Positions 17,176-63,125 of a stretch of DNA of 64,000 nt are shown here, in pieces. Under the pieces are notes generated by a model. It worked only from the letters and a program-made list of their open reading frames with translations, did no database searches and was not told the DNA's origin. The stretch is taken from contig JADKEF010000002.1 of the NCBI GenBank assembly GCA_016718135.1, positions 3,536-67,535 of the forward strand. Direction: 5' to 3'. The translations under genes and the position numbers were made by a program. Source of the DNA: Acidobacteriota bacterium (GTDB taxonomy: Bacteria > Acidobacteriota > Blastocatellia > Pyrinomonadales > Pyrinomonadaceae). The stretch's first letter is position 1. Each line of letters begins with the position of its first letter.

Positions 17176-17622
17176 TTAATACTCGCTGAAAGCCGTGCCG
17201 TTACTATCTTCCCCTTCGGCTAGGCTTTTGACGTCAACGAGGCCCGATTCACCGTCGGCTGAGTTAGAGTCTTCGCCCTGTATCTCGTTCCATTCGGCTT
17301 TTTCTAGGATCGGATCGATCGGTTTCTCACGAAGATACTTTTCGGTCACAAGATCCTCTACCGACTGCGGTAGTTTACCCTTGTCCGCTCGGAACTGGTC
17401 GATCGAGCGTCTGATCTGAAATAGGTTCTCCTTGAGTACGATCTCACGAGCCTGACGAACGCTTCGCTCATAGGTGGGCACAGCGATTGAGAGCAATATG
17501 ATCATGATAAACATAGCGATCATCAGCTCAAGCAGAGAGAATCCCCTCTGTCGCGTCTTAATCACTGACGACGGACCACTGACCACTGACAACTGTTTAC
17601 CAATCACTATACTTCTCACCAT
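17176..17622 (-). CDS. GspG-like pseudopilin (prepilin-type N-terminal cleavage/methylation domain)
   Basis: RQRG|FSLLELMIAMFIMIILLSIAVP prepilin signal, then a GspG-like ..L..IR.SID.F..D.G..P.S...LV...YL...P.DP. The exact start is uncertain because the leader is encoded by CCACTGA heptamer repeats. Confidence 0.75.
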   Translation of the reverse strand: MVRSIVIGKQLSVVSGPSSVIKTRQRGFSLLELMIAMFIMIILLSIAVPTYERSVRQAREIVLKENLFQIRRSIDQFRADKGKLPQSVEDLVTEKYLREKPIDPILEKAEWNEIQGEDSNSADGESGLVDVKSLAEGEDSNGTAFSEY

Positions 17623-27691: not shown

Positions 27692-29198
27692 TTACAATGA
27701 GGTCATCGGCTCTGCGGACGTAATCCCATGCACACGTTTGTAAGCGAGTTCCGCGCTGATCAGACATATCTGCGTCCCGATGCCCGGATTCGTTCCCGCA
27801 CCGACATAAAACAGATTCTCGACCTTCTTCGACTTATTCTTAGGCCGAAATATCGCGGTCTGCCTTAGCGTATGAGCGAGACCGAGTGCAGAGCCTTTGA
27901 ACGCATTGTAGTCAATTCCAAAATCCGCGACCGTGTAAATACGTTTATATTCGATCTTTTCGCGAAGACCCGGCAGGTTCATTTCCGTTTCCATCAACGC
28001 CAAAACGCGATCGGCATACGCGTCCTTCTCAGCATCGGAGATCTCCAGTCCCGAAGCGATCGGCACCAGAACAAACAAATTCTCCTTCCCCTCCGGAGCA
28101 ACCGACGGATCGGTCACGCTCGGGGCACAGACATATAGCGACGGCTCGTCGGGCAGACGCGGGTCTTTGTATATGTCATCAAAATTCTTTCGCCAGTCTT
28201 CACTGAACAACAGATTGTGATGTATCAACGAAGGCAGCTTTTCGCTGACGCCGAGATACATGATGAACGCCGACGGGGCCATCGTGCGTTTTTGCCAGTA
28301 CTTCTCTTTGTGCGTTTGCTGTGGAATGTCGAGCAGCTGCGTCTCGGTGAACCACATATCGGCGTTCGAGATGACAAGATCTGCGTCGATCACTTCGCCG
28401 CCTTCGAGTCGCACTCCAACCGCCTTTCCGTCGCGAACGATGATCTTCTCGACCGGTGAATTGGTCCGTAAAACCGCTCCATTCTTCTCCGCGATGTTCG
28501 ACAAAGCCCTGATCAGCTCGTAAAAACCGCCCTGCGGATAAAACACTCCCTGGTTAAAGTCCATGTGCGACATCAGGTTGTACAGCGCCGGGGCTTCGTA
28601 GGGCGAGGTGCCGAGGAAGACCATAGTGTATTCCATCACCTGCTGCAGCTTTTTCGACGTGAAGAACTTCGACACAAACTTATGCATCGTCGAGAAAACC
28701 GAAAGCTTTTGCCCCTCGGTCATCACGCGTTTGTTGAAAAAATCGAAGATCGTATCGTAATTCTTAAACATGAAGTGCTGCGTCGCGACTTCATATTGAT
28801 ATTCGGATTGTTTCAAATAAGCCCGCAGCTTATCACCCGCTCCCGGCTCGATCGCGTCGAAGGTTGCGGTGTCGATGTCGATATTTGAGTTGATATCCAG
28901 CGGATCGCCGTTGTTGCGAAAAAAGATGCGATACGAAGGGCCGAGTTTACGAGGTCAAGATGATCCTCGACCTTTTCGCCTACGAGATTAAAGTAATGCT
29001 CGAAGATGTCCGGTGCCAGATACCACGACGGCCCCATGTCGAACTTAAATCCGTCATGCTCCAGAAAATGTTCGCGCGGCCGCCGAGGTTCGCGTTTTTT
29101 TCCACGACGGTCACATCGTAACCCTTCCGCGCAAAAAGACCGGCGGCCCCGAGACCGCCGATTCCAGCTCCGATAATTACGAGTTTCTTACCTACCAT
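27692..29198 (-). pseudogene. crtI: phytoene desaturase family (CrtI/CrtD), frame broken by two apparent 1-nt indels
   Basis: Three ORF pieces join colinearly: MVGKKLVIIGAGIGGLGAAG..VVEKN..LGGRA | ..HDGFKFDMGPSWY..EDHLDLV | ..LGPSYRIFF...FMFKNY...C-terminus. Shifts at about 29065-29075 and about 28944-28950. The start overlaps the crtB stop (TAATG). Confidence 0.8.
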
Positions 29199-30079
29199 TA
29201 TTCGTACACACCAACCAACGCCTTCGCTGAAAGCCACATCTTCTGCTTAAAGTTCGTTCGAACGCGGCCCTTATAAACATTATAGTTTGCTCGCTCCACT
29301 TCGGCTAAGATCGCCTTGTAAAGAACGTAGGCGATGCGGACTGCGAGGCGGCCTCGCAAGGAAAGCATTGGAATGCCGATTAGAGCTTCACGGTAGATCT
29401 GGCGGTTTCGTTCTATTTGAAATTTCATGAACCGCACAAACCGCTCGTCGTGAACGCGATCCGAAATATCATCAGACGATAAACCAAACCGCCGCAATTC
29501 CTCCTGCGGCATATAAACGCGGCCTAGTTCTTCGTAGTCCTCGCGAATGTCACGCAGGAAATTGGTCAACTGAAACGCATAACCGAGCTGCACCGCGTGT
29601 TTGAACGCCGCATCGCTCGAATATCCGACGATCCTCGTGACCATCAGCCCGATCACTCCGGCCGAGCCGTACATGTATTCTTCAAGCTCGGCGTAGGTCT
29701 GGTACGAGAATTTCTCCTCGTCCATGAACATCGACTTCAGAAAAGCCTCGCCGTCCTCGACCGGGATCGAGAATTTGTGGAAGGTATGAACTATCGCGTT
29801 CATCACCGCATCGTCGCTGCCGCCCGCATTCATTGCGTTGAGCCAGTTTTGCCGCCACTCGTCGAGTTTCGCAAGAGTATCCTCCGTCGTACCTTTCGCC
29901 GGATCATCAACTATCTCGTCCGGAATACGTGCAAAAGCATAAATACAATAGATCGCGTAGCGAACCTCCCGCGGAAAGAACTGCGTTGCGAAGTAATAAC
30001 TCGTGCCGTAACGATTCGTGATCGCTTTACACTGAGCCACGCCTTCTGCGAGAAATTGCCTGTCCTGCCAGTCAGCCAT
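29198..30079 (-). CDS. crtB: phytoene synthase
   Basis: 293 aa with SYYFAT.FFP, YAFAR..DEIVDD, LTNFLRDI.ED...GRVY.P. Confidence 0.9.
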   Translation of the reverse strand: MADWQDRQFLAEGVAQCKAITNRYGTSYYFATQFFPREVRYAIYCIYAFARIPDEIVDDPAKGTTEDTLAKLDEWRQNWLNAMNAGGSDDAVMNAIVHTFHKFSIPVEDGEAFLKSMFMDEEKFSYQTYAELEEYMYGSAGVIGLMVTRIVGYSSDAAFKHAVQLGYAFQLTNFLRDIREDYEELGRVYMPQEELRRFGLSSDDISDRVHDERFVRFMKFQIERNRQIYREALIGIPMLSLRGRLAVRIAYVLYKAILAEVERANYNVYKGRVRTNFKQKMWLSAKALVGVYE

Positions 30080-39781: not shown

Positions 39782-41096
39782 TCAGGCTGACTTTGCGATT
39801 TTGCCCTTCCTACGCGACGCCTGAATAAAATCTTCAGCCTCGCGCATCTCTTCGGCGTCGCCGGTGATGAGGCGGGCACTGCGTTCTCGTGTGAGATAGG
39901 CCCAGAACCACGACAACATCACTGCCACGCGGTTGCGAAATCCGATGAGAAAGAACACGTGGAGGAACAGCCACATTAACCACGCGACAAAGCCCTTGAA
40001 CTTCATGCCGGCCGCCTCTGCGATCGCCTTCTTACGGCCGATCGTCGCCATTGTTCCTTTATCCCAGTAGGTGAAGTTCTTCCGCGGTTTGCCGTTAAGA
40101 TCGGCAAGAATATTCTTCGCCGTCGCCGTGCCCATTTGCATCGCCGCCGGGCTCACGCCCGGAACGGGCTCGCCGTTCCCTTGCAGGAGCGATGCCATGT
40201 CGCCGATGACGAATAGATTTGGAAAGCCCTTTAGCGACAGGTCTTTTTCGACAAAAACACGTCCTGCCTTATCGATCTCAACGCCCAAGGCTTTGCCCAT
40301 CGGCGAGGCAGCAACGCCTGTTGCCCATAGCACGACATCACATTCCATCCATTCGTCGCCGACCTTCACGCGGCCGGGCTTGATCTCAGTCACAAAGCTG
40401 TTGAGGCGAACCTCGACGCCGATCTGTTCAAGCTGGCGTTTGGCACTGATAGACAATTCTTCGGCGAAAGTATTGAGCACACGATCCGAGCCTTCGAATA
40501 ATGTGACATGCGTGTCTCGCGTGTCGATCGCTTTGAAATCTTTGGCAAGCGCCTGACGGGCGATGTCCGCGATAGCACCAGCAAGCTCAACGCCGGTCGG
40601 GCCGCCGCCTACTACGACGAAGTTCAGCAGCCGCTGTTCGCCGGTGAGATAGGCGTCGCTCGGCGAGTTCGAACGCGAGCAGTACGCGACGGCGTATCTC
40701 GACCGCATCCTCAAGGGTCTTAAGTCCCGGAGCCGAAGTCTCCCAATCGTCATGGCCAAAATAGGAATGCCGTGCACCACCTGCCACGATCAGATAGTCA
40801 TATTTGACGCGGGCTCCGTCCATAAGGACGACCTCATTCGACTCCTTCTCGAATGCTACCGCCTCACCGAGTATCACCTCAATATTCTTGTATTTACCAA
40901 GTATCCGCCGTATCGGCTGAGCGATCTCGCCTGGAGAAAGCACCGCCGTCGCCACCTGATAAAGCAGCGGCTGAAAGACGTGATGGTTCTTCCGGTCGAT
41001 CAAAGTCACCTCGACCGGCTCGTTCCCCAGAGCCTCCGCCGCCCAGAGTCCGCCAAAGCCGCCGCCGATTATTACTACTTTTGGTTTGTTGGTCAT
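39782..41096 (-). pseudogene. ndh: type II NADH:quinone oxidoreductase (NDH-2), frame broken by one apparent 1-nt indel
   Basis: PKVVIIGGGFGGL...LLAFELAE | DAYLTGEQRLLNFVVVGGGPTGVELAG.... The shift is at about 40655-40662. ATG at 41096. Confidence 0.8.
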
Positions 41097-41147
41097 AATA
41101 TCGCCTCCATAAGTAAGGCGAAAATCCGTAAGCATGCGGCTCACGTT

Positions 41148-50218: not shown

Positions 50219-52474
50219 TTTGATACGAGGAACCCGGCCTATTCCGGTGCGATCAGATCCAAGCCGGTCAGACTCTCGCTCGGAGTTATCTGCCTTGGGG
50301 CGAAAAGATAACGCCGCGACGCAACTGCAAGGGTGTAGCTTTGGCCTGGAGCGATGCCGTCGATGCGGTAATAGCCAAAAGTGCCGGTTGTAGCAGAACG
50401 GCTAACGCCGCTTGCGTCCGTTAGCGTCACCGTTGCGTTGCGAAGTCCCGCTCCGCCGGGGATCAGGACCCGGCCTGAGATCTCGACCGAAAGGGCGTTT
50501 GGCCCGGCGATCGAGATCTTACCATTGGTTGGTTTGACCGAGAGCGAATTCGCACGGTCATCCGAAACCGATAGATCTTCGATCAGGATACCCGTGTCAC
50601 CCGTCGGAGCCTTCGCGTTGACGTCGAACGACACGTTGACGAAGGCGGTTCAGGACACGTATCACGCCCGGTTCATCGACGTTTGCCGTCAACATAGCTC
50701 CGCTCGACGGATCGGCAAGTTCGACGATCGCGTTGCCGAGTTTCGCCGCATCGTATCGGAGTACAAAGCTGACGGCCATTTCGTCGCCATTCGACCGCAT
50801 CTCGATCGGAACGATGACACGGCTGCCGGTCGATGCATTGGATGAGCCGATCCGGATCTCTCTCGAACCTGCTTCACGCAGTGCCTCAGGCGGTGCGATC
50901 GGTCCGGAATTCGCCGCTCCAGGCCCGCCCGCCGACCTCGACGGGTCGAGTCCCGCAACATAACGGCGGGTTTGCACAACGTCTGTCGCACTGAGGAAAC
51001 CATCGCCGCCGACACTGGCTGGTGCCGAATCCGCTCGTTGGAATTCATTGTGCGTTAACACAGGCGTATCGAGCCCGGCAACAAAGCGTCGTACCTGTAC
51101 AACGTCAGCCGCCTCGAAAGTGCCACTGCCCGCATTTCGGCCAGCGAGATCGCCCTCGAGGCCCTGAGCAAATACGATCAGGCCATCGACATAACGTGTG
51201 AGCAGCGGATTGCTCGCCGCATCACGCGTTACGAGATCGACCGGTGAATTGACGAACGTGATCGCCGCATTTGGAAGGTTGTTGGTGACGGTCGTGAAGT
51301 TCATCGTCGCGATCTGTTTCTGAGCCGTCGGCTCTTCGCCCTCAGCCGCTTCGATCAGCGAGAACACGCCGCCGGCCGGAACGATCGTCACACCGACGCG
51401 TCCGAGCGTACTCGTATCGGTCGTGATCGTACATCCCGGCGCCTGCGGGCCGCAGACGAATGTCGGTGCGGTCGCCATCGTATTGAACGGATACTGGACC
51501 GTGAACGAAACGCTCGCCTCATTACCCTGGCTGTCGAGCACGACCGGCATCGAACCCGACGCCCCCGGCACAACGAACTGCGTGTTCGGCGAGGTGTACG
51601 CGGAATATCGTTCGCCGAATTGTACCGTGTGAAGTCGGCTCCCGTTATGTTGTCGTTGACCGTGTAAGTACGGCTCAGCGGATCGAAGATTCCCGCCGGC
51701 GGCGTGATCGTACATACGCTGCCCAGCGGACCGCCGAATATGATCGTGTAAACACCGCTAGCATTCGTCGTCGCTGTTGCACTCGCACAGCCCGACAATG
51801 TCATCGTCAATCCCGCGATCGGTGTCATTCCCGGAGCCTGTCTGACAGTTCCCGAGATCGCGACGTTGACCGTGTGAGTCGTTGTCGGCGATGTCGAGGT
51901 ATTGAAGTTGTTGTCCCCGTTATGGGTCCGAGAGATCGTCTTCACTCCGGTAGTCGTTGGTGTCAGCTGACAGCTTCCCGCCGCAACAGGTGCAGTACAC
52001 GTACCGCCGCCCGTGCCGCCGTTGACCGTCACCGTTCCCGTCGGATTTCCTGAATTGACCTGGACAGGAGCCGGAACGACCGTCCACGAGACCGTGTATG
52101 GCTGATTGACTAGTGACGGATCAGGACTGTCAGACGTTATAGTCGTTGCCGTGTTGGCCTTATTGACAGTGTAGTTGAGATCGCCCGTGCTGCCATTGAA
52201 ATTAGCATTGCCCGAATAGATCGCTACCACGTCTCTCAAACCAGCCGGCAAGGCCGGTAGTCCCGCCTGCGTACAGCTTGCCGTCAAACCAGCCGACAGC
52301 GGCGTGTTCGCACAGTAAATGTTGCCATCAATGTTAAAGCTGACCGTGCCCGTCGGCGTTCCCGTTCCGGGAGCAACGACCGCTACCGTGGCCGTGAATG
52401 TAACGCTTTGTCCGAAGACGCTCGGGCTCACCGGTACGGCTGTGACCGTCGTTGTCGTCGAAGCAGGCGTGATC

Positions 52475-53690
52475 GTCAGGTTCGCACCGACGTAGGTGAT
52501 CGAGTAGTTCGGATTGTTTGCATTAGTGACCGTGCCCTGCAAGATCGCGTACGGGCTGCCCGCAACCGTCTCACCGGGAACACGTGTAAGTGCTCCGGCG
52601 ATAGGCACTCCGGCTCCAAGACTCGTCGTCGTGAATGTCAACGGCGGATCTACCGCTCCAAATACCTTTGTCTTGGCATCTGCGGTCACCGTTACCGGCC
52701 TCACCGTAATGGTCAGGTTCGCACCTACGTAGGTGATCGAATAGTTAGGATTGTTGGCGTTGGTAACCGTGCCCTGCGTTATCGCGTACGGACTTCCGGC
52801 TACAGTCTCCCCTGCGACCCGCGAAAGTGCACCAGTGATCGGCACACCAGTTCCAAGACTCGATGTTGTAAACGTCAATGCCGGATCGGCGTCGCCATAG
52901 ACCTTGGTCTTAGCGTCCGCCGTCACCGTAACCGGACGAGTTGTGATCGTAAGGTTGGCTCCGACGTAGGTTATGGCGTAGTTCGGATTGTTAGCGTTCG
53001 TGACCGTACCTTGCAGAATTGCATACGGGCTGCCGGTGACCGTTTCGCCGGCGGTCCGGGTCAACGAACCAACTATAGCAACACCCGTTCCGAGGCTCGA
53101 TGTTGTAAAAGTCAATGCCGGATCGGCATCGCCATAGACCTTGGTCTTGGCGTCCGCCGTAACGGTGACCGGACGGGCCGTGATAGTTAAATTAGCCCCG
53201 ACATACGTTATCGAATAGTTCGGATTATCGGCGTTGGTAACCGTGCCCTGCAAGATCGCGTAAGGGCTCCCGGCAACCGTTTCGCCCGCTGTGCGGGTCA
53301 AAGCACCGGCTATCGCCGCCCCAGTTCCGAGGCTTGTAGTCGTATATGTGAGCGGCGGATCGGCATCGCCATAAGGCTTGGTCTTGGCATCTGCCGTCAC
53401 TGTCACTGGGCGAGCCGTGATCGTAAAGTTAGCCGTTGTTCCGGTGACAAAGTCATAGTTCGGTGCGGCAAGCGATCCGGGAGCACAAGTGATCGTGTAC
53501 GGCGAACCCGCAACCGTCTCACCCGCAGTCCGTGTACAGCTCGGCGAACCTGTAATGCCGGAGTTACCCGAATTATCTGATAACAAGAAGCCGGAGTATG
53601 TCGCTGTGAATGCCGGATCGGCGTCGCCATAGACCTTGGTAGCCGCAACCGCATTGACGTTCAGCACGGCCTTGTTGACTGTTAGTTGGA
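52475..53690. repeat. five MBG-type (YGDADP) modules; the last four are a 237-nt tandem DNA repeat
   Basis: gtcaggttcgcac recurs at 52475 and 52712 (237 nt apart). The protein repeats as IT.RPVTVTADAKTK.YGDADP.LT.TT.SLG.G....G.L.R..GETV.GSPYAI.QGTVTNA.NPNY.ITYVGANLT. Confidence 0.8.
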
Positions 53691-54239
53691 ATGTCGCGTC
53701 GGTGGTCGCACCGCAGTTGTCGGCGGCACGGATCGTTATCGTGTGCGTACCGAACGGGGCCGCGTTTGTGAATGTGACCACACCCGCAGGACTGACTGAA
53801 ATGCCTCCCGTGTAGGTTCCGGTATTCTGGACCACGACCGAGGCGACGTTACCATTATCGGATGGACCTGTGGCAGGATTGACCACCGTGCCTGTTGCAT
53901 AAGTAATGGCCGCGGGATTGGTGTACGTGAGTGTTGGCGGCGTGTTTGGAGTAATGTTGACCGTCAAAGTCCCTGTACCCGTCGCTCCTTGAGCGTCGGT
54001 CACAACGAGGCTGAATGTCGCCGTCGTCGCGCCGCAGGCTGCGACAACATTCGCCGTCACCGCACCGCCAGCTGCGATCGAGAGCCCGCTGACCGTCACG
54101 CCGTTCACCGTAGCACTCGCACCGTTATTTACCGTTATGCCAAGCGTATTCGGAGCCTGTTCAGTATCAGCCGCCGTAGCGATCGTAAAGTTCCCCACCG
54201 GACTGCCCTCAGGAGCAGAGATCGTGTCACTGCTGATCG

Positions 54240-55290
54240 TCGGCGGCGTGTTGCAGGTTCGTGTGAGGATCGAGACGTTGTGTGAAGAGGAGTTACCCGC
54301 TGCGATGTCCTGATCGCCGTCGCCGTTAAAATCACCGACTGCGACAGAAATGGGATTTGTGCCGACTCCAAAACTTACGGCCGGTGCAAATGACCCTGCT
54401 CCGTTGCCGACGAGGATCGACACGTTGTTTGAATTGATATTTGCCGCTGCGATGTCCTGATCGCCGTCGCCGTTAAAATCACCGACTGCGACAGAAATGG
54501 GATTTGTGCCGACTCCAAAACTTACGGCCGGTGCAAATGACCCTGCTCCGTTGCCGACGAGGATCGACACGTTGTTTGGATTGAAATTTGCCGTAGCGAT
54601 GTCCTGATTGCCGTCGCCGTTAAAATCGCCGACCGCGACCGATACGGGAGTTGTGCCGACTCCAAAATTTACGGCCGGTGCAAATGACCCTGCTCCGTTG
54701 CCGGTCAGGATCGACACGTTGTCTGAATTGGAGTTTGCCGCCGCGATATCCTGATCGCCGTCGCCGTTAAAATCACCGACTGCGACAAAATAGGGATTTG
54801 TGCCGACTCCAAAATTTACGGCGGGTGCAAACGACCCTGCTCCGTTGCCGGCGAGGATCGAGACGTTGTTTGAATTGAAATTTGCTGCAGCGATGTCCTG
54901 ATTGCCGTCGCCGTTAAAATCACCGACTGCGATTGAATAGGGCGTTGTGCCGACTCCAAAATTTACCGCCGCAGCAAACGATCCCGCTCCATTGCCGGTC
55001 AGGATCGAGACGTTGTTTGAACCGCGGTTTGCGGCTGCGATGTCCTGATTGCCGTCGCCGTTAAAATCACCGACTGCGACAGAATAGGGATTTGTGCCGA
55101 CTCCAAAATTTACGGCCGGTGCAAACGACCCTGCTCCGTTGCCGGCGAGGATCGACACGTTGCTTAAAAAGCGGTTAGCCGTCGCGATGTCCTGATTGCC
55201 GTCACCGTTAAAATCACCTACTGCGACAGAATAGGGAATCGGGTCGACCGCAAAATTCACCGCCGGCGTAAAATTGAGTCCGGCACAGAC
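54240..55290. repeat. seven FG-GAP-type blades encoded by a 147-nt tandem DNA repeat, with adjacent copies nearly identical
   Basis: A stretch of about 130 nt beginning gcgatgtcctgatcgccgtcgccgttaaaatcaccgactgcgac occurs at 54302 and again at 54449. The protein repeats as VAVGDFNGDG(N/D)QDIA.AN...NNVSIL.GNGAGSFAPAV.FGVGT.P.S seven times. Confidence 0.85.
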
Positions 55291-58200
55291 AGGTGCATTA
55301 TTCACCGTCAGGTTAAATGTAGTCGTCGACGTACCGCCGGGGCCAAATGCCCAAACCGTGACCGGATATACGCCCGGAGGAATATTCGCCAGAGCCGCAT
55401 TCGTCACACGCACCACGCCAGTCACCGGATCGGCTGTCAACCCGCCAATAAAGCTCGTTGGTGCTGAAACGCTGATACTCGTCGTCCCCGTCGGAACCGC
55501 ACCCGGCGTGATCGTCACATTGTCGCTCAAACCAACCGATGTCGCCGGATACACACCCAGCGTCGGCGGGAGGACGTAAGTATAGAGCGTATTCGGGGCA
55601 TTTGTTCCGTTAGGTGTTGTTACCACAACACTTGCCGTGCCTGTGGAACCAGCGGGCGTTACGGCTGTGATGGTCGTACTGTTGACGACCACGACGCTCG
55701 TCGCAGGGTTGCCGGCGAATGTAACGGTGGTTGCTCCAGTCAGGTTAGTTCCGGTGATAGTTACTGCAGTTCCTCCGGCTGTTGAACCGGTCGACGGATT
55801 GACACTCGTGACCGTCGGCGGAACAACGGCCGTCAGGACAACGTCGTTATTATCGCCGCCCACATAGCTGATCTTGGCGTTGAGGCCCGAGCCGAGGAAG
55901 TTCGTGATCGTCGCTCCCTCGGCGAGGCCCGCAAACGTACCGCCGACTGGATCCGCACCGTCGTTGTTGATGATCACGTACTGTTGTCCGGCAGTAGGAA
56001 CGAACCCGCCTAACTGAGCGATGGACAGATTTGCGTCAGTAACATCGACAGTTCCGGTGACGTTCATCTGGTCGTGGAAGCCCGGACCGTTGCCCGGCGT
56101 CGCTCCGCCGATCTCGATCGCGAAATTTGATCCGGCGCCTAGCGACAACAGAGTCGCGACGTTAATGATACCGGGACTCGCTCCGGGCCGCAGAGTTCCT
56201 CCGGGATTAACGGAGAGCGGATTGTTCACCGTTCCAAAAATACCGAGGTCGCCCGATCCAAAAACGAGTGTTGCGACGGGAGTGCTGAGATTCGTCGTCT
56301 TCGTCTGTGAGATCGCGCCGACAACATTTATATTTCCGGTATTCGCGTTGCCGATATTCAGCGTCCCTGCCGTTATTCGATCAAGCTCGGCGTCGGAGAG
56401 TTCTAACGTCGATGGCGTCGTATCGACCGTGGAGCCGAGGTCGATGGTCAGGTTGTTGGTCTTTTGCCGCAGCGATACGACGTTGCCCGCGGCATTGATC
56501 GCACCGTTCGTGGTGTTGATCGCCATGCTGTCAGAGATCAGGGTGACAGTGCTGCCAACACCGCTTGCGGTGAGCGTTCCGGCTCCGGCTGGGGCGATGT
56601 TGATACCGGCATTATCCGTTCCGCCCGAGCCGCCTGTTCCGGTCATGCTGATCGCACCCGTCACAACCGAGACATTTGAACCGCCGCGGACCTGGACGCC
56701 CTGGTTCGTGCCTCCTGCGCCACTGCCGCCTGTGCCGGTGATGGTGATATTCGCAGCGCCCATCGCCGTGATGTTGTTGCGGATCGACACACCAAAATTG
56801 AAGCTAGCTCCGCCACCGGATGTTCCGCTGATGATCAGGTTTGAACCGGTCGTCGAGACCGTTCCGTCCTGCCGATAGCCTTGTGAGCCCCCAGCTCCGC
56901 TCGGTCCGCTGGTGCCAGTCAGAATTGCAGTGCCTGAGCCACCGGCAGATATCGACGATCCGGCCGAGGCAAGTATGCCAGCTGAACCGATGAAACCTGC
57001 CCCCACATTACCGGAGCCCCCTACGCCGATAAGCGTAAGATCCGCATTCGCAACGGAAAGCGGGCCGAAGGTAGAAAATCCGTATGAGGATCCCGCGCTC
57101 GAGCTTCCACCAGTGGCCGTGATATTGACAGGCCCATCGACGGACGAAATGCCTGTCGTAGCTGTGTTAATGATCACACCTCTAGATGATCCCGCACCCG
57201 GAGTTATATTGCCGCCTAGTGCATCGATCGTGATCGACGCTGCGCCAGCCCCCGTTCCTGTCGAGCTGATAACCGAAGGCACACGGATGTCCAAGGCATA
57301 CGAGAATACGTTCGCTCCGCCGGTCGAATCGCCGCCTCTCGCAGTAATGCCGATGTTCCCGACAACGGATGTAATCGATCCGCCGCCGTTGAGGAAAACA
57401 CCTATATTAGGAGCATCACCCGTAGATGTGGCTCTACCATCTATTGTGATCGTACCCGCACCCGCGGAAGCACTCGTTGAGCGGACAAAACAGCTCGTCC
57501 CACTTAAAGCAATACCCATAGACGAAGCAAACGCATTGGTCTGTGCGGTTGTACCGCTTCCGCCCTTTCCGTTCATGACAATGCTGCCGGTACCGGTCGT
57601 CTCAATGACGGCGTCAAACATCTCAATACCGACCGAGTATCCCGGATTTGGTATTGCCTGCTGATTCGCATTCAACGTCGCGTTTCCGTTGACCACGCTG
57701 ATACTTGAGCCGCTGCCCATGAAGATGTTTCGGCCCGCCGTCAGCGAAATCGAACCCGTGCCGCTCATCGTGAGGTCGCTAGCCGCATTTTGCAAATATT
57801 GGGTTTGGGATACAAAGGTCGAGACGTTCTTGTTCGTCCCGAAGCCTATTGTGCCCTCAAAAGATACATCGAGAAACTCAAATCCTGGCGAACCGATCGT
57901 CAAGCCCGGATAATTCGCCGCGAGCGTGAATGCGTTCAACGTGTCGGTCGCATTACCGCGATTGACTGTGATGGATCCTGTTGGATTGGCGAACGTCGTC
58001 GTTTCAAATGTTGCGGTCACCGCCGTCAAAGTCGAACTCCCGCTGCCGGCATCGGTAAGGTGAACGATATTTGCAGGCCCCGCCGGAAGGTTAAAGATCA
58101 CATCCGCCGCCGTGCCGCTGTTAACGATCGGTTCGAGGCCGGTGTAGGTGATCGTGCCTGTGCGAGTGCCGCCGACCATAACGATGTCGCCATCGTTTGC

Positions 58201-61200
58201 GTTGAAGTAGTTGTACGTTGTCGTGCCGCCCGAGTAACCGGTGATGTTGAGGGCGTCATCGCCGCCCGCACCGCCGTTAAAGAATAATCCGCCAACGGCA
58301 ATAACGCCTTCGCCGCCGCTAGGTGCAGTGATAAAGTCGCAACCCGAGAGATCGACCGTCAGCGTGTCGTTCCCGCCGTACGTGTTGACCGTGATCGAGC
58401 CCGTGACCGACGAGGTCGGGATCGTCTGATTCAAACCCGTACCGGGATCTGTGATCGTAATGTCAGAGCCGCTGCAGGCGATCGTGATGTCGTCGTTAGA
58501 GGTGCCGCCGTTCGTGTCCTCGATCAGCAAATTTCCACCGCTGACCGTTACTGTGGTCTCCAGCACCGTCGCGAACTCATCTGCGCCGATGTCAGGCGTA
58601 GTTACGCTGCGTGCTTCGTCATCGAAGTCAGTCGTGACAGCGGCGATGGGGGTTCCTATGTTGCTGACAGGCGAGGAAGGCGATACGTGGAGGTCGGTGG
58701 CCGATACGAAGAGCGGGTCACTCGAGATCGAATTCGTATCCAGTCCAGTCGCGGACTGCCACTGGGCAAGGCTCGTTAATTGGGTTGCACCGGCGTCCGG
58801 GCTGCCAAAAACGGCCCCGGCACCCGTCACGTAGATATCGTTGTAATTCATCGCGGTGCCCGAGGTCGAATCGAGAACAACGCCAGAGTTCGGGCCTCCT
58901 GCATGCAATGTTGAATTGACAAAAATGTTGTTTCTGATATCGAAGCTGCCGGGGGAGTTTCCGCCCAGGGCGAGGAAGGCTATCGATTGAACTCCGTCGC
59001 TCGAGCCAAACAGTCCGACCGAGTTGTGATATACATTTACCGTCCCGGCAGCAACATTAGCCCAGATCCCTACAGGGTCAATGCTGTCACCTGGAGAGGA
59101 TGTGCGGGAGATCATGTTGTTCGACACCGTCAACAAGTCCGTTGGCTGCCCCGCAATTAGATTAATACCAGTGGCCGCGCCGCGGATCAGATTGCGGTCG
59201 ATGACGGTCGCTCCGAACGTTTCGACGCCCGATTGTAGATCTATCCCTGTGCCGTCCGACTGATCCATCGTGTTGCCGCGAATGACCGAACCGGACATGT
59301 TGTAAATTTCGATCGCCGTGCCCAACGCCTGCGTAAACTGGTTATTCGTAACGGTCGGTCCGGGAATATTCGGAACCGTTGCACCCGCCGCGATCGCCCA
59401 CCGCAGCGAGCCGGTGACGGGAGCGAAGGCACAGTTGTCCACGACAACATTAGTCCCAATGTCATCGAGGCGAAGTGCGGTTCCAACCCCGGTGGCGCTG
59501 ATCGCGACATTCTTAACCGTTATGTTGCTGCCCAGGATATAGAGCCCATTCCCGCTAAAAGAGCCGTCCGAGTTTGCGAACGAGAGATCTCGTGAAGTAC
59601 CGCCGACCTGATTTGAACCATCGATAATGATGTTCGACGCGGTATTCCCCATAAAGAGAAACGGGTTCGCAAACGACCCGGAGAATGCGGGCGTCTGGCC
59701 GGCAGCTGGTTTGATCGTCAGCGTATTGGTCGTGCTCGAGCCGAGAGCGGCCGAGATCGATATCGGATACGTTTCGCTATTGTACGAGCTGTCAATAAGG
59801 CTGAACGTCACCGGCCCGCTCACGCCCCGCGTATTGTATGCCGCGGCGGCCGCGGTCAACGTCGCAAAATCGCCGCCGACGCCGACGGTATATGTGCCGT
59901 TGAGCGGAGTCAGATATGTATATTGATTCGCGGCCGCGGTCGCACTGGTGCCGCCGGGCGTCGTCACGGTCACATTCACCGTGCCCGCAGAGCCAGCCGG
60001 TGCGGTCGCCGTTATAGAGGACGCGTTGTTGAACGTAAAGGCGGCGCTCGTCGCCCCAAACATAACCGATGTCGCGCCGGTAAAGTTCGTACCGCCTATC
60101 GCAACTGCATTGCCGCCCAGGGCGGAACCCGATGTCGGATTTAGAAGCGTTACGGTTGGAGGAGCGACGTAGGTGAATCTGTTCGCTACCGCGATAGCGC
60201 TTGTACCGCCCGCAGTCGTCACTCTAACGTTGATGATCCCAGCAGTGCGGGCCGGAGATGTCGCGGTGATCTGCGTCGGGCTGTCGACCGTGAATGTTGT
60301 TGCGGCCGTTGTACCGAACGTGACTGCGATCGTACCGGTAAAGTTCGTTCCAGTGAGCGTGACAACGGTGCCGCCCGCAGTCGGGCCGGATGTCGGATTG
60401 ACAGCCGTGACGGTCGGCGCAGCTACGTACGTGTAGAGCAGATTCGGCCCATTAGTTCCACCGGGCGTGCTGACCAAGACGCTAACCGATCCCGCTGAGT
60501 GCGCCGGTGCCGTGCAGTTGATCTCGGTGTCCGAAACGAAATTCACCGATGTACAGGCGTTGCCGTCAAACGTCACACCTGTCACTCCCGTAAACCCGGT
60601 ACCCGTGATCGTGACACTGTTACCGCCTATGACCGACCCGGATGTCGGATTGACGGCGGTGACCGTCGGTCCCGACAAGGGAGCCTCGTAAGCTCCGATA
60701 TCTGTACCGTCGGCTGCATTAGTTGGTGAATTATCCACCGTTCGTGCGAACCCGGCTCCGCGCTGATCGGCGGTCAAAGGAACAAGCGCATTTATGCCCT
60801 TATCGAGCGCCGGGCTGCCGGGGAGCACGGCGTGCGTCTCTGTTGGGCCGCCATTGTTTGCCAATGGGCCGAGCATCGCATCGTCGTACTCGATGACAAT
60901 ATCGTTCGAACCGCCGCTGATGGCGCCTGCGACCCCGATCAGGTTATAGCCCTGCGAAGTTAAGGTGCCTACAATGTCGAAACCAGCTCCGCTGCAGATG
61001 TTATTGGCGATGATGGAACTGCGGGAATTCACAGTACTAGTGGCACTGTTGTAAATACCGCCGCCGCAGAAGAGCCCCGCCGTATTGGATGTGATCGTCG
61101 AGTTGGTAACCGTTACCGCGCCGGACGAACTGTTGTTTATGCCGCCGCCGCCCGAACTGGAGTTGCCGGAGATCGTCGAATTGGTTACGGTTAGCGTGCC

Positions 61201-62418
61201 GCTGTTAGCGATACCGCCGCCTTGGCCGGCGCTGATGTTTGTAGAGTTTCCGGAGATTGTCGAGTTGGTGACATTCAACGTGCCAGTGTTGCCAATGCCG
61301 CCGCCGGAGTCGCGTGCAAAGTTGCCGGAGATCGTCGAGTTCGTGATCGTGACCGTGCCGTTGCTCGCATTATAGATACCGCCGCCTACTCCGCCGCCGC
61401 TTCCGTTTGTAGAGTTGGCGGAGATGGTCGAGTCACTAATTGTCAGCGTACCTTCGTTAAAGATACCGGCGCCGAAGCCGTCGTTTGCGACTTGCGGCGC
61501 ATCTCCCGAGATAATTGGGGCAGATAAACGGCCATCCGTTCCCGTGCCGCCTTCGATTTGCGGCCTGGGTGGATTGGAGATAATTGGGGCAGATAAACGG
61601 CCATGCCGGACCGTGAGGCCGCTGATCGACGCGGTCACGCCGCTGTTGACGTAAAACACGCGGTCCCCCGCCGCATTTGGCGCGGCATTTGCCTGAACGA
61701 TCGTCGTCGGTGCCCCTGCACCTGTTATGGTCAGATTCTTATCTACGGTGATGCCCCATTGCGTATAGGTCCCCGCCGCGATGCTGATCGTTTCGCCCGT
61801 AGCCGCCTGCCCGATGGCATACGCGATTGTCGCACAAGCCGCCGAAACGCAGTTCCCCGTGTCCGATCCGGTTGTCGCAACAACAAGGCGGGTTATGGTA
61901 TTCGAGCTGAAGTCATCCGAGAAAACAGTCGCAATGGCCAGCGGTGCCTCCCCCGACGGTGTCGGCATCGGTTCCGCGACGACATTCACCGTTGCACCGC
62001 CGCCGAACCAGCTCGCTACTGATTCCACAAACCCAAAGCGCACTCCGGCGGCTCCGGCGGAGGTTGCCGTAATCGCGATGCCGGTGATTGCGGTTAGGAT
62101 GACGAGCGCTAGGACAGACGAATAGCGAGACGAACGACGGGGGGACATGCGCATAAAATTATTGCTCTCCGCTTGAAGCGATAACGGAAGGCAGTAAAGT
62201 ATTCGGTCGTGGAATGTATCGTCTCAGTAAACGCTGACACGACGCCCCGGCTTTACACCGTTAAATTGTTGCAAAATCTAGATTTCCTGTAATTATAGGC
62301 ACATAACAGGCAAAGTCAAGCTAAAAATTGGAAGGCATGGACGTGAGCTACAGCCGTGTATTTGCGGCGCGAACTCGCTCACTTTCAAGAATATTTGGCG
62401 GGAATTCGGGTGGAAATT

Positions 62419-62636: not shown

Positions 62637-63125
62637 CTAGATCGACGGATCGTCGGCCTTGGCCGGGCGGTTTTCATCAGTTCCCTTGATCGTGCTCAAC
62701 GAGGAATCTGTGTAGAAATGCCGCGTTCCCGAAGCGGTTACGCCTTCCGCACTTACAGGATCCGCGCTCACTGAATAGAATGCCGGCTTACTTCCCGATG
62801 AAGGCTCGACCGTCATTTTGAATGTATAACCATTCTTGACCGGAGCCTCGCCGCGAAAGCCTTCATCGAGTCCCATCTTGGTGACGAGATCTTCAAATGT
62901 GGCAAAATTTCCCTTATTTCGCCCGGCGTACTGTGCCTGATAGGTGCGAAGCTGGTTCAGGGTCTGGGCGGCGGTCGTCTCGTTGCCGCTGCGGATGACG
63001 GCCTGCCATGCGAGGCTGCCGACGCCGATCAGCAGGCCGATGATGGCGATAACGATCATCAGCTCGATGAGGTTAAAGCCGCGTTGGTCTTTCAGTCTAT
63101 TTCTCAAATTGCTCATAAATCTCAA
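62637..63125 (-). CDS. type IV pilin-like protein (prepilin-type N-terminal cleavage/methylation domain)
   Basis: KDQRG|FNLIELMIVIAIIGLLIGVG prepilin signal, with a C-terminal domain of about 130 aa. Confidence 0.8.
   Translation of the reverse strand: MRFMSNLRNRLKDQRGFNLIELMIVIAIIGLLIGVGSLAWQAVIRSGNETTAAQTLNQLRTYQAQYAGRNKGNFATFEDLVTKMGLDEGFRGEAPVKNGYTFKMTVEPSSGSKPAFYSVSADPVSAEGVTASGTRHFYTDSSLSTIKGTDENRPAKADDPSI

Follow-up and report, generated by a model that had tools for sequence, protein, structure and literature searches.

The locus described here raises two questions: whether an ~11.9-kb region of the window (the whole 64,000-nucleotide, or 64 kb, stretch of DNA that was analysed) codes for one secreted protein, and what a dockerin placed between two cohesins would do at the C-terminus of such a protein. 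Cohesin-dockerin pairing is the textbook route to extracellular multi-protein machines. In a cellulosome, carbohydrate-active enzymes that carry dockerins are combined with a scaffoldin, which has multiple cohesins, a CBM and an SLH or sortase anchor. To our knowledge, work on the pairing has been confined almost entirely to cellulolytic Firmicutes. Soil and wastewater hold large numbers of Acidobacteriota, which are difficult to cultivate.

In a Pyrinomonadaceae-type acidobacterium, the region appears to code for a single giant, adhesin-like secreted protein. The gene itself is confirmed, and its predicted product is a secreted protein of ~4,000 residues. The start codon is the ATG at 62154, the signal-peptide-like N-terminus in the minus-strand translation is MRMSPRRSS...VLALVILTAITGIAITATSAGA, and the coding sequence reaches the stop codon at 50239-50241. 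The initial annotation took this to be one gene; in the assembled sequence it is not a single ORF and contains two frame breaks. Its phrase 'frame-corrected translation' shows that a frame problem had been noticed and left undescribed. Pfam was run both on gene segments and on the entire protein. The gene and the modules of its body, from the N-terminus, are as follows.

50239..62154, minus strand: whole giant gene, ~3,971 codons when frame-corrected, ~3,984 with the 13 lost codons restored
62047..62154, minus strand: signal-peptide-like N-terminus with a basic n-region, a hydrophobic core VLALVILTAITGIAI and then SAGA, read from the translation by eye
61093..61485, minus strand: right-handed beta-helix 1 with NSTISGN turns (Pfam Beta_helix, E 1.3e-8)
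59875..60684, minus strand: three IPT/TIG modules (Pfam TIG, 3 stretches, E 9e-45)
59020..59550, minus strand: right-handed beta-helix 2, NosD-like (Pfam Beta_helix, E 1e-10; NosD, E 3e-4)
55855..58254, minus strand: Gly/Ser/Thr-rich tract of ~800 residues with no Pfam match at E<=0.01
55576..55818, minus strand: IPT/TIG module 4 (Pfam TIG, E 2.6e-16)
54235..55284, minus strand: seven FG-GAP blades of a beta-propeller (Pfam FG-GAP_3 and FG-GAP, 7 stretches each)
53680..54234, minus strand: two Big_9 Ig-like modules (Pfam Big_9, E 2.6e-7), missing from the initial list
52465..53679, minus strand: five MBG_2 modules (Pfam MBG_2, 5 stretches, E 3e-73)
51865..52464, minus strand: two Big_3_5 Ig-like modules (Pfam Big_3_5, E 3e-23)
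51601..51864, minus strand: CarboxypepD_reg-like module 1, weak (Pfam 25 bits against a cut-off of 32.3, thus sub-threshold)

Apart from the Big_9 pair, the domain order had been read correctly: Pfam searches of the frame-corrected translation reproduced nearly every module in sequence, and found Cohesin and not Dockerin_1. Glycoside hydrolase (GH), CBM and SLH families were absent from the giant protein, in segments and as a whole. We also agree that the protein bears no PEP-CTERM, LPXTG or T9SS-type sorting signal. Pfam found no Por_Secre_tail, PEP-CTERM or LPXTG (with TM helix and basic tail) in it, and its last domain is a CarboxypepD_reg ending ...LTGLDLIAPE at the stop codon. Relatives with a single ORF exist (P0132, 3,860 aa), and the open frames in 79 related loci range from 420 to 3,632 aa.

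The last ~450 residues would form a cassette of cohesin A, a linkerless dockerin, a ~30-residue linker, cohesin B and CarboxypepD_reg, the cohesins being numbered 1 and 2 below.

51164..51577, minus strand: cohesin 1, divergent, with a conserved Cys pair (C-G-x5-C), adjoining the dockerin without a linker
50918..51163, minus strand: dockerin-like module with two repeats D-x-A-x-R-x2-G-x-G-x5-D-V-V-Q-x-R-R-[FY] (AlphaFold, Foldseek and profile)
50867..50917, minus strand: linker from dockerin to cohesin 2, with a conserved AGGP just upstream at the dockerin end (alignment)
50497..50866, minus strand: cohesin 2, interrupted at 50650 (Pfam Cohesin, E 4e-9)
50242..50490, minus strand: terminal CarboxypepD_reg (Pfam E 5e-12, 46 bits), followed by the stop at 50239-50241

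Both cohesin-like modules of the initial annotation held up, cohesin 2 through Pfam and cohesin 1 through profile comparison and fold. Cohesin 2 scores 37.2 bits against the PF00963 cut-off of 24.1 and covers 3-139 of the 139 profile positions, in the frame-corrected sequence only and despite 13 missing residues; it matches PDB cohesins, cellulosomal ones included, at E 2e-9. The window's own cohesin 1 has no Pfam match at E<=10, and its profile retrieved nothing relevant from the PDB sequences. Modules homologous to it have a Pfam Cohesin match in 7/23 cases (best E 7e-9), and hhalign aligns cohesin 1 with cohesin 2 at 99.9% (E 4e-32). An AlphaFold model of the intact paralog P0001 (542 residues, five domains; pLDDT 90.2, pTM 0.75) has a single low-confidence stretch, the linker between dockerin and cohesin 2. 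In Foldseek this model matches many solved cohesins with a TM of 0.7-0.8, and it aligns to the cohesin dyad 3l8q over about 448 columns that cover both cohesin modules. The nine-stranded beta-sandwich of cohesins is present in the predicted structure. NCBIfam gave no family for the cassette.

The duplicated dockerin-like segment was likewise borne out, by its model and by the PDB. AlphaFold of 50909-51181 gave a pLDDT of 91.9 and a pTM of 0.84, with helices at residues 24-34, 46-50 and 65-75, and the top 23 PDB matches of this model in Foldseek are all dockerins (23/23), with a TM of 0.56-0.81 except for three longer chains (0.28-0.37). Tandem loop-plus-helix repeats in a three-helix dockerin fold are thus predicted, and together with P0001 the models give the cohesin and dockerin folds anticipated for the C-terminal modules. 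The family profile retrieved only dockerins from the PDB sequences (best E 1.5e-3). The window segment has no Pfam Dockerin_1 (PF00404) match at E<=10, while the homolog P0023 has a precomputed one.

The initial annotation regarded its assignment as standing or falling with cohesin and dockerin matches and with the Ca-binding loop geometry. The matches were found; the geometry is non-canonical. In a canonical 12-residue EF-hand-like loop, Asp or Asn fills positions 1, 3 and 5, and position 12 is Asp. Loop 1 reads R-N-A-G-S-G-T-F-E-A-A-D and loop 2 S-V-G-G-D-G-F-L-S-A-T-D in the HMM alignment, and ligand residues are not conserved at positions 1 and 3 of either loop. Family-wide, position 1 of loop 1 is a nearly invariant Arg, and an invariant Asp lies 4-5 residues upstream of each loop. 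Because these ligand positions are missing and Arg occupies position 1, the behaviour of the module may differ from that of a classical dockerin. The two repeats share symmetric recognition residues (R/R, G/G, Q/Q, S/S, L/L, T/T).

Judged by its sequence distribution, the cohesin–dockerin–cohesin unit is a standard, lineage-typical C-terminal module of hundreds of Pyrinomonadales exoproteins. In species-representative genomes 355 loci with the cassette were confirmed. Among the best 79 of the 355, nearly all are labelled Pyrinomonadales, 'Chloracidobacterium' or Acidobacteriota, often with several per genome. Clustered at 50% identity, the proteins with this dockerin variant fall into 1,797 clusters, of which 1,551 reach E<=1e-10. 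The arrangement had been called unusual outside cellulosomes, which cannot be maintained for a cassette that recurs in 355 loci and about 1,800 clusters. Where the frame reaches a stop, the NEFQRAD motif lies 200-313 aa ahead of it in 82/84 occurrences. The paralogs P0001, P0057 and P0107 carry MBK952xxxx accessions in series with the window's P0002 and come from the same MAG. Judging by its IPO41 locus tags and MBK95 accessions, this MAG may belong to a set of long-read MAGs from activated sludge. Across the family the N-terminal partners include metalloproteases, a subtilase, propellers, Calx-beta, Ig-like repeats, FG-GAP and beta-helices. In an architecture census a cohesin almost always follows the dockerin, the upstream cohesin adjoins the dockerin without a linker, and complete triads recur as tandem duplicates; each member has its own cohesin. 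Homologs in GenBank already bear the name 'cohesin domain-containing protein'. In the literature that we searched, the fixed Coh-Doc-Coh(-CPD) cassette of Pyrinomonadales is not described, nor is any experiment on a member of the family.

The cassette shares the cohesin beta-sandwich fold with type I cellulosomal pairs (C. thermocellum 1ohz/2ccl; A. cellulolyticus ScaB-ScaC 4uyp/4uyq), and its dockerin shares the duplication, three helices and internal two-fold symmetry of type I dockerins, with a TM of 0.66-0.81. At positions 17-19 of both repeats the basic-basic-aromatic pattern is R-R-F/Y in the cassette and K-R-Y in type I. In contrast to type I systems, the cassette is not on glycoside hydrolases, comes without scaffoldin, CBM or SLH, has both partners on one chain and belongs to a Gram-negative acidobacterium; a conserved Asp precedes its dockerin loops by 4-5 residues, ligand position 1 is Arg, and the window copy goes undetected by Pfam Dockerin_1. 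The giant protein does not qualify as part of a cellulosome: it has no GH, CBM or SLH, the N-terminal partners in its family are Ig-like repeats, FG-GAP, beta-helices, proteases and propellers, and each member has a cohesin of its own.

The best Foldseek matches of the cassette model are CohI9-X-DocII of CipA (3kcp/4fl4; E 3e-15, about 249 columns). Both have a beta-sandwich module directly N-terminal to the dockerin, the X-module in CipA and a cohesin in the cassette. The dockerin and cohesins of CipA differ in specificity and so do not bind each other, whereas covariation suggests that the cassette dockerin matches its own downstream cohesin type. Non-cellulosomal modules are also among the structure matches (A. 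fulgidus cohesin 2xdh; C. perfringens NagJ/NagH 2jh2, 2w1n, 2ozn) and, like the cassette, lie outside plant-cell-wall degradation. These are scattered and single, whereas the cassette is a fixed C-terminal Coh-Doc-Coh(-CPD) unit, several per genome, on hundreds of proteins. Such modules were surveyed by Peer et al. 2009, as cited in PMC6487960, and the cohesin and dockerin of A. fulgidus are a functional binding pair (PMC9705933).

Like the T9SS CTD, PEP-CTERM and LPXTG, the cassette is one conserved C-terminal module on many unrelated exoproteins at a fixed distance from the stop; unlike them, it has no transmembrane or sortase-type motif and no sequence relation to them. In a T9SS organism the triad stands ahead of Por_Secre_tail, and their occurrence together makes it probable that the triad is an assembly module and not an export signal.

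Covariation was examined by mean-field DCA on 295 sequences (Neff about 249), which gave one strong inter-domain signal; weaker inter-domain pairs (score <=1.5) were treated as noise. In each of the two repeats, dockerin position 17 couples with column 87 of cohesin B, which is Asp395 of P0001 at the end of strand 6. Strand 6 is part of the 8-3-6-5 face, by which a cohesin binds its dockerin. Among all residue pairs these stand at ranks 8 and 9, ahead of every intra-cohesin pair. RR occurs with D in 181 sequences and without D in 25, while other residues occur with D in 4 and without D in 94. Most of this reflects two large subfamilies (V-R-R paired with Asp, W/F-G-R paired with Ala), and much of the signal may thus be owed to common descent. 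The signal suggests that dockerin Arg17 and the Asp of the downstream cohesin genuinely meet, and it fits a contact in cis as well as one in trans.

A mechanism can be proposed on this basis. After export through Sec, the symmetric dockerin would offer Arg17, Arg18 and the aromatic residue on both helices to a cohesin-B-type face, in a contact that includes the strand-6 Asp. Since each cassette has both partners, the contact can close in cis or swap in trans between cassettes. Closure in cis would give a compact unit, as AlphaFold implies; the alternative is a swap in trans. The cassette would then serve as a common C-terminal handle, holding together many exoproteins as different as adhesin-like giants, proteases and propellers, on the cell surface or within the matrix. 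Alongside the observed domain identities, family-wide conservation, C-terminal position, several copies per genome and covariation, we infer binding, its cis or trans form, any calcium dependence and a localising role.

Two forms of such a contact were weighed. Tentatively, the cassette may be a self-complementary coupler by which dozens of diverse exoproteins of Pyrinomonadales, among them giant adhesins, proteases and propellers, are chained in trans into a non-cellulolytic, cellulosome-like network at the cell surface or within a floc or soil matrix. In its dockerin, an Arg may have taken the place of a Ca ligand. It is also possible, if somewhat doubtful, that the cassette has a purely structural role as a closed unit: its flanking cohesins would clasp the dockerin in cis for good, making a rigid stalk or stabiliser that joins no proteins. 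The X-module, which stabilises the type II dockerin, offers a parallel. By our estimate the pTM of 0.75 for the five-domain model needs ~80% of the P0001 chain in one confident arrangement, as a clasped unit would have, but AlphaFold monomers often render intermolecular contacts as intramolecular. The linkerless junction of cohesin A and dockerin, the fixed module order and the tandem duplication of whole triads fit a structural unit, as does the Por_Secre_tail that follows the triad in the T9SS organism, where the triad itself is then not the export signal. The dockerin recognition residues are near invariant over about 1,800 clusters, so specificity has not diversified, which also fits; yet both repeats keep them symmetrically, like dockerins with a dual binding mode. 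A purely structural role leaves unexplained why dozens of exoproteins in one genome, otherwise unrelated, share the cassette at a fixed C-terminal distance.

Whether the cell makes this copy of the cassette depends on the two frame breaks, for which the references were proteins P0001 and P0121 (92-95% identical).

51594..51600, minus strand: frame break 1, with 1 nt lost in the Leu codon after ...DIPRT, where P0001 and P0121 read DIPRTLSLNTQF in frame
50649..50651, minus strand: frame break 2, a 38-nt deletion relative to the relatives in mid-cohesin 2

ORF1 (62154..51388, 3588 aa) is sensible only to ~51598 (...NSANDIPRT) and then runs into Arg-rich out-of-frame sequence. Cohesin 1, the dockerin and the first half of cohesin 2 lie in a different frame (about 51594..50651). 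The 38-nt loss at 50650 restores the original frame, to which the last 131 codons (50649..50242) return. This second break removes 13 conserved residues (VDSPSVFERWAKG), among them the Asp that covaries with the dockerin Arg. Programmed frameshifting was ruled out, as neither site has a slippery or homopolymer context and relatives read straight through. Long-read indels are not typically 38 nt long, and the deletion could be real. A search for independent DNA of the locus reached at best 56% identity in genome contigs and 60% in metagenomes.

Assembly or sequencing errors are the most likely source of both breaks, and the full protein is therefore probably made by the cell. It is unlikely that they are genuine and that the gene is a decaying paralog with a 3,588-residue product that lacks the cassette and ends in ~70 junk residues, the gene of P0001 (a 92% identical paralog) keeping the function. 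Decay would suit a deletion that takes out conserved cohesin residues, unlike a homopolymer slip, two breaks confined to the last 1.4 kb of an 11.9-kb gene, and a near-identical paralogous 3' end in the same MAG. Against it, the cassette, though out of frame, keeps 92-95% identity to intact relatives, and no stop codon interrupts its own frame. Within the same 64 kb, housekeeping genes contain at least 3 further frame breaks, among them a split in an NDH-2-type gene and two shifts in a CrtI-like gene, a sign of a noisy assembly. In this MAG and in its sister MAG, every giant gene is fragmented, each in a different place: P0121, the sister-MAG ortholog, is continuous across break 1 and broken elsewhere, and P0001, P0121, P0122 and P0132 begin at an internal Met. 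That the pieces are separate genes, as GenBank has it with P0002 (293-aa 'hypothetical protein IPO41_03920', called from an internal Met), is highly improbable, and three separate genes were rejected, because P0002 begins in mid-cohesin 1 and ends in out-of-frame sequence, and because in all relatives a large N-terminal part precedes the modules, which share a single frame.

The explanation that we favour as a whole, and consider fairly probable, is one giant exoprotein with a lineage-typical C-terminal cassette that acts as contact and handle, its frame breaks being assembly errors. For the window, the lesson would be that the domain reading was correct, while probable assembly errors split the gene and left a GenBank 'hypothetical protein' for the middle piece. 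If the explanation is true, the cassette would provide an orthogonal binding pair for protein engineering, possibly with an unusual calcium dependence. Its presence on hundreds of Acidobacteriota exoproteins would be a second, unrelated use of cohesin-dockerin pairing, one that would organise the secreted proteome of these bacteria and possibly their aggregation.

As assembled, the giant adhesin-like gene (50239-62154, minus strand) is not a single ORF. ORF calling produced one minus-strand ORF with a start at 62154 and a stop at 51388 (3588 aa) and two more minus-strand ORFs at 51715..50597 and 50634..50239. Three-frame translation showed that frame shifts divide a single coding sequence among all three. 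Its main frame is sensible to ...YNSANDIPRT (~51598) and turns into Arg-rich nonsense thereafter. The sensible continuation ...SPNTQFVVPGASGSMPVV... sits in the second frame to ...DEPGVIRVL (50651), and the final 131 codons (TAFVNVSFDVNAKAPTGD...LIAPE and stop) are again in the first frame. No homopolymer or slippery motif was found in the DNA at break 1 (near 51595, upstream of cohesin 1) or break 2 (at 50650, within cohesin 2). Correcting the frames yielded a protein of 3,971 aa. Two small genes, at 62637-63125 and 17176-17622 (both minus strand), have a Pfam N_methyl domain (prepilin-type N-terminal methylation motif); the former immediately precedes the giant gene in the same orientation.

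Pfam was run on the whole frame-corrected protein and on ten segments. The domain order proposed in the initial annotation was recovered, with one addition, the Big_9 pair.

Pfam domains of the giant protein from the N-terminus, all encoded on the minus strand
First, Beta_helix, the N-terminal-most Pfam domain
Second, three TIG, after Beta_helix
Third, a second Beta_helix/NosD, after the three TIG
Fourth, ~800 residues that matched no family, after Beta_helix/NosD
Fifth, a single TIG (the fourth), after the family-less ~800 residues
Sixth, seven FG-GAP, after the fourth TIG
Seventh, two Big_9, after FG-GAP
Eighth, five MBG_2, after Big_9
Ninth, two Big_3_5, after MBG_2
Tenth, a weak CarboxypepD_reg, after Big_3_5

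At the C-terminus, cohesin 2 passed Pfam Cohesin with a full-length match (37 bits) and the final 86 residues passed CarboxypepD_reg (CPD). The cohesin 1 and dockerin segments of the window had no Pfam match whatsoever, and NCBIfam found nothing on the cassette. In the second Big_3_5 module (approximately 51900-51960, minus strand) the window reads TISRTHNGDNNF versus TISATYNGDNNF in the homologs P0121 and P0122. Here 2/3 adjacent residues differ from close relatives in a stretch otherwise 95% identical, which may be a further local sequence error.

Profile and structural comparisons were used to classify the two segments without Pfam matches. Sub-alignments of cohesin 1 and cohesin 2, both drawn from one MAFFT alignment, matched each other with 99.9% probability (E 4e-32, 125 columns). 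When homologous cohesin-1 modules with the same Cys pair were scanned singly, 7/23 matched Pfam Cohesin. In the AlphaFold model of an intact relative, P0001 (pLDDT 90.2), cohesin 1 is a beta-sandwich, and Foldseek aligned the P0001 model with a dyad of type II cohesins (~448 columns). The dockerin was modeled from the window's own segment (50909-51181) with 60 homologs, which generated three helices (pLDDT 91.9). Its best 23 PDB matches were all dockerins, types I to III, with TM scores of 0.56-0.81 except for three longer chains (0.28-0.37). A dockerin-only profile searched against PDB sequences likewise returned dockerins only (best E 1.5e-3). Positions 17-19 of the two window repeats, R-R-F and R-R-Y, resemble K-R-Y, the type I dockerin recognition triplet. 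The cassette modules are members of the cohesin and dockerin superfamilies. Both identities were upheld by profiles and fold. The calcium loops are non-canonical. In the HMM alignment ligand position 1 is a nearly invariant Arg, ligand position 3 of the window dockerin is Ala or Gly, and each loop is preceded, 4-5 residues upstream, by an invariant Asp (D-x-A-P-R motif).

The frame breaks were compared with homologs. At break 1, P0001 (92.6% identical) and P0121 (95% identical) read through as DIPRTLSLNTQF, so the window is one nucleotide short there, in a Leu codon. At break 2, P0001, P0132, P0003 and P0004 have 13 extra residues (VDSPSVFERWAKG or equivalents). The window retains 1 of those 39 nucleotides and so has lost 38 nt within cohesin 2. 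Judging by accession numbers, P0001, P0057 and P0107 belong to the MAG that also holds the window's annotated fragment P0002 (IPO41_03920), which makes P0001 a paralog rather than an ortholog. Housekeeping genes of the window hold further frame breaks.

Other broken genes in the window
39785-41144, minus strand, NDH-2-type (type II NADH dehydrogenase-like) gene, split at ~40.7 kb, leaving two ORFs that overlap and differ in frame
27692-29240, minus strand, CrtI-like amine oxidase/desaturase with two shifts at ~29.0-29.2 kb

Of the two NDH-2-type ORFs, 41144..40587 spans Pyr_redox_2 profile positions 2-139 and 40780..39785 spans positions 142-291 plus NDH2_C. The main CrtI-like ORF lacks the N-terminus; its FAD-binding start (MVGKKLVIIGAGIGGLGAAG...) and the segment that follows are in two other frames, indicating two more frame shifts within ~250 nt. 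Giant genes in the window's MAG and a sister MAG are broken up at differing places. In complete chromosomes and Illumina MAGs, homologous genes form uninterrupted open frames as long as 3,632 aa, and P0132 (3,860 aa) is in one piece. Assembly error is the likelier cause of breaks 1 and 2, judging from these sequences. The 38-nt loss at break 2 is atypical and may be genuine. Independent DNA of the giant-gene locus was sought in genome and metagenome scans and was not found. Compared with window 50239-52400, a second giant gene in the same MAG (P0001/P0122) is 92.6% identical over its last ~530 residues, while the upstream parts diverge (66% with gaps, no MBG block). The shared 3' end suggests recent duplication or gene conversion, and such near-identity could have confused assembly or polishing at the window locus.

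The initial annotation considered a dockerin flanked by cohesins unusual; it proved to be a family trait. Homolog searches yielded 54 and 93 proteins, which with few exceptions come from MAGs of Pyrinomonadaceae, Blastocatellia or Acidobacteria. These proteins differ widely in their N-terminal parts, with Ig-like repeats, Calx-beta, FG-GAP, beta-helices, LamG, propellers, M36 and reprolysin-like proteases, and a subtilase. The dockerin is the best conserved stretch across the whole cassette (alignment A1, cassette homologs). The motif [NG]EFQRADx[AS]P was confirmed at 355 loci in species-representative genomes. The best 79 of these carry, almost without exception, the labels Pyrinomonadales, 'Chloracidobacterium' or Acidobacteriota, often with several loci per genome. 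The open frame reaches a stop in 82/84 motif occurrences at these 79 loci, each time 200-313 residues after the motif. With the dockerin-only profile, 1,797 clusters (50% identity) were identified, 1,551 with E <1e-10, which delimits the cassette dockerins as a sharply bounded subfamily. Two loci of a Pyrinomonadaceae MAG (L062 and L065, JBBJMG010000013.1) have three cassette-bearing genes in one 15-21 kb stretch, with open frames of 1,153, 2,301 and 1,552 aa or 1,552, 1,142 and 1,153 aa. These are tandem arrays of proteins with a common C-terminal cassette.

Architectures were tallied in 349 sequences using local HMMs. A cohesin almost always follows the dockerin, ~150/349 sequences have cohesins on both sides, the upstream cohesin directly adjoins the dockerin without a linker, and some proteins have two whole Coh-Doc-Coh triads. 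P0135 (319 aa), P0136, P0137 and P0138 contain two or three tandem dockerin-like modules or two complete triads consecutively, architectures reminiscent of scaffoldins or adaptors. A T9SS organism contributes one member (P0084, L088 6001-8061; JGI 3300001473, 1.05 Mb contig). In this Laminin_B protein the triad is followed by Por_Secre_tail in place of CarboxypepD_reg, and a neighbouring gene also has Por_Secre_tail. Cassettes of P0007, P0009, P0011, P0012, P0014, P0031 and P0032 lack the terminal CarboxypepD_reg (A1 columns 780-871) and end in a conserved short tail that is basic at its C-terminus (e.g. EFDIIQEWTRENPVMIVRRREQ, ...IIKERRRKI).

Unlike a cellulosome, the cassette system has no CAZymes, CBM, scaffoldin or SLH, and is therefore not one. 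Cohesins and dockerins outside cellulosomes have precedents, for instance in A. fulgidus and C. perfringens, and both module types also occur together on single scaffoldin chains. Three features are new: the Coh-Doc-Coh(-CPD) cassette is fixed, it sits strictly at the C-terminus of numerous unrelated exoproteins from a single bacterial order, and its dockerin calcium loops are altered. No description of the cassette was found in the searched literature.

The initial observation is partly confirmed and its interpretation partly supported: the module identities stand, the rarity of the arrangement does not, and self-assembly or docking through these modules is a possible function. The five-domain P0001 model has a pTM of 0.75, which by our estimate would call for roughly 80% of the chain to sit in a single confident arrangement; AlphaFold would thus see the cassette as a compact body. 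Mean-field DCA was performed on 295 dockerin plus downstream-cohesin sequences (Neff ~249). The top pairs are symmetric dockerin positions, and ranks 8 and 9 among all pairs couple position 17 of each dockerin repeat to one cohesin column, the Asp that ends strand 6 (P0001 D395). Arg/Arg was counted 181 times with Asp and 25 times without it; other residues were counted 4 times with Asp and 94 times without it. Both repeats change in step (R/R, G/G, Q/Q, S/S, L/L, T/T). It is exactly the coupled Asp that is lost through the window's 38-nt deletion. The covariation is compatible with a salt bridge across an interface of canonical type, and with a dockerin that is symmetric and dual-mode. It is suggestive only, since the signal is dominated by two subfamilies. 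A shared C-terminal coupling handle is the favoured model; a purely structural cassette acting only in cis is its main rival. As a coupling handle, the cassette would allow the dockerin to engage cohesin 2-type modules either in cis, forming a closed unit, or in trans, forming chains and networks.
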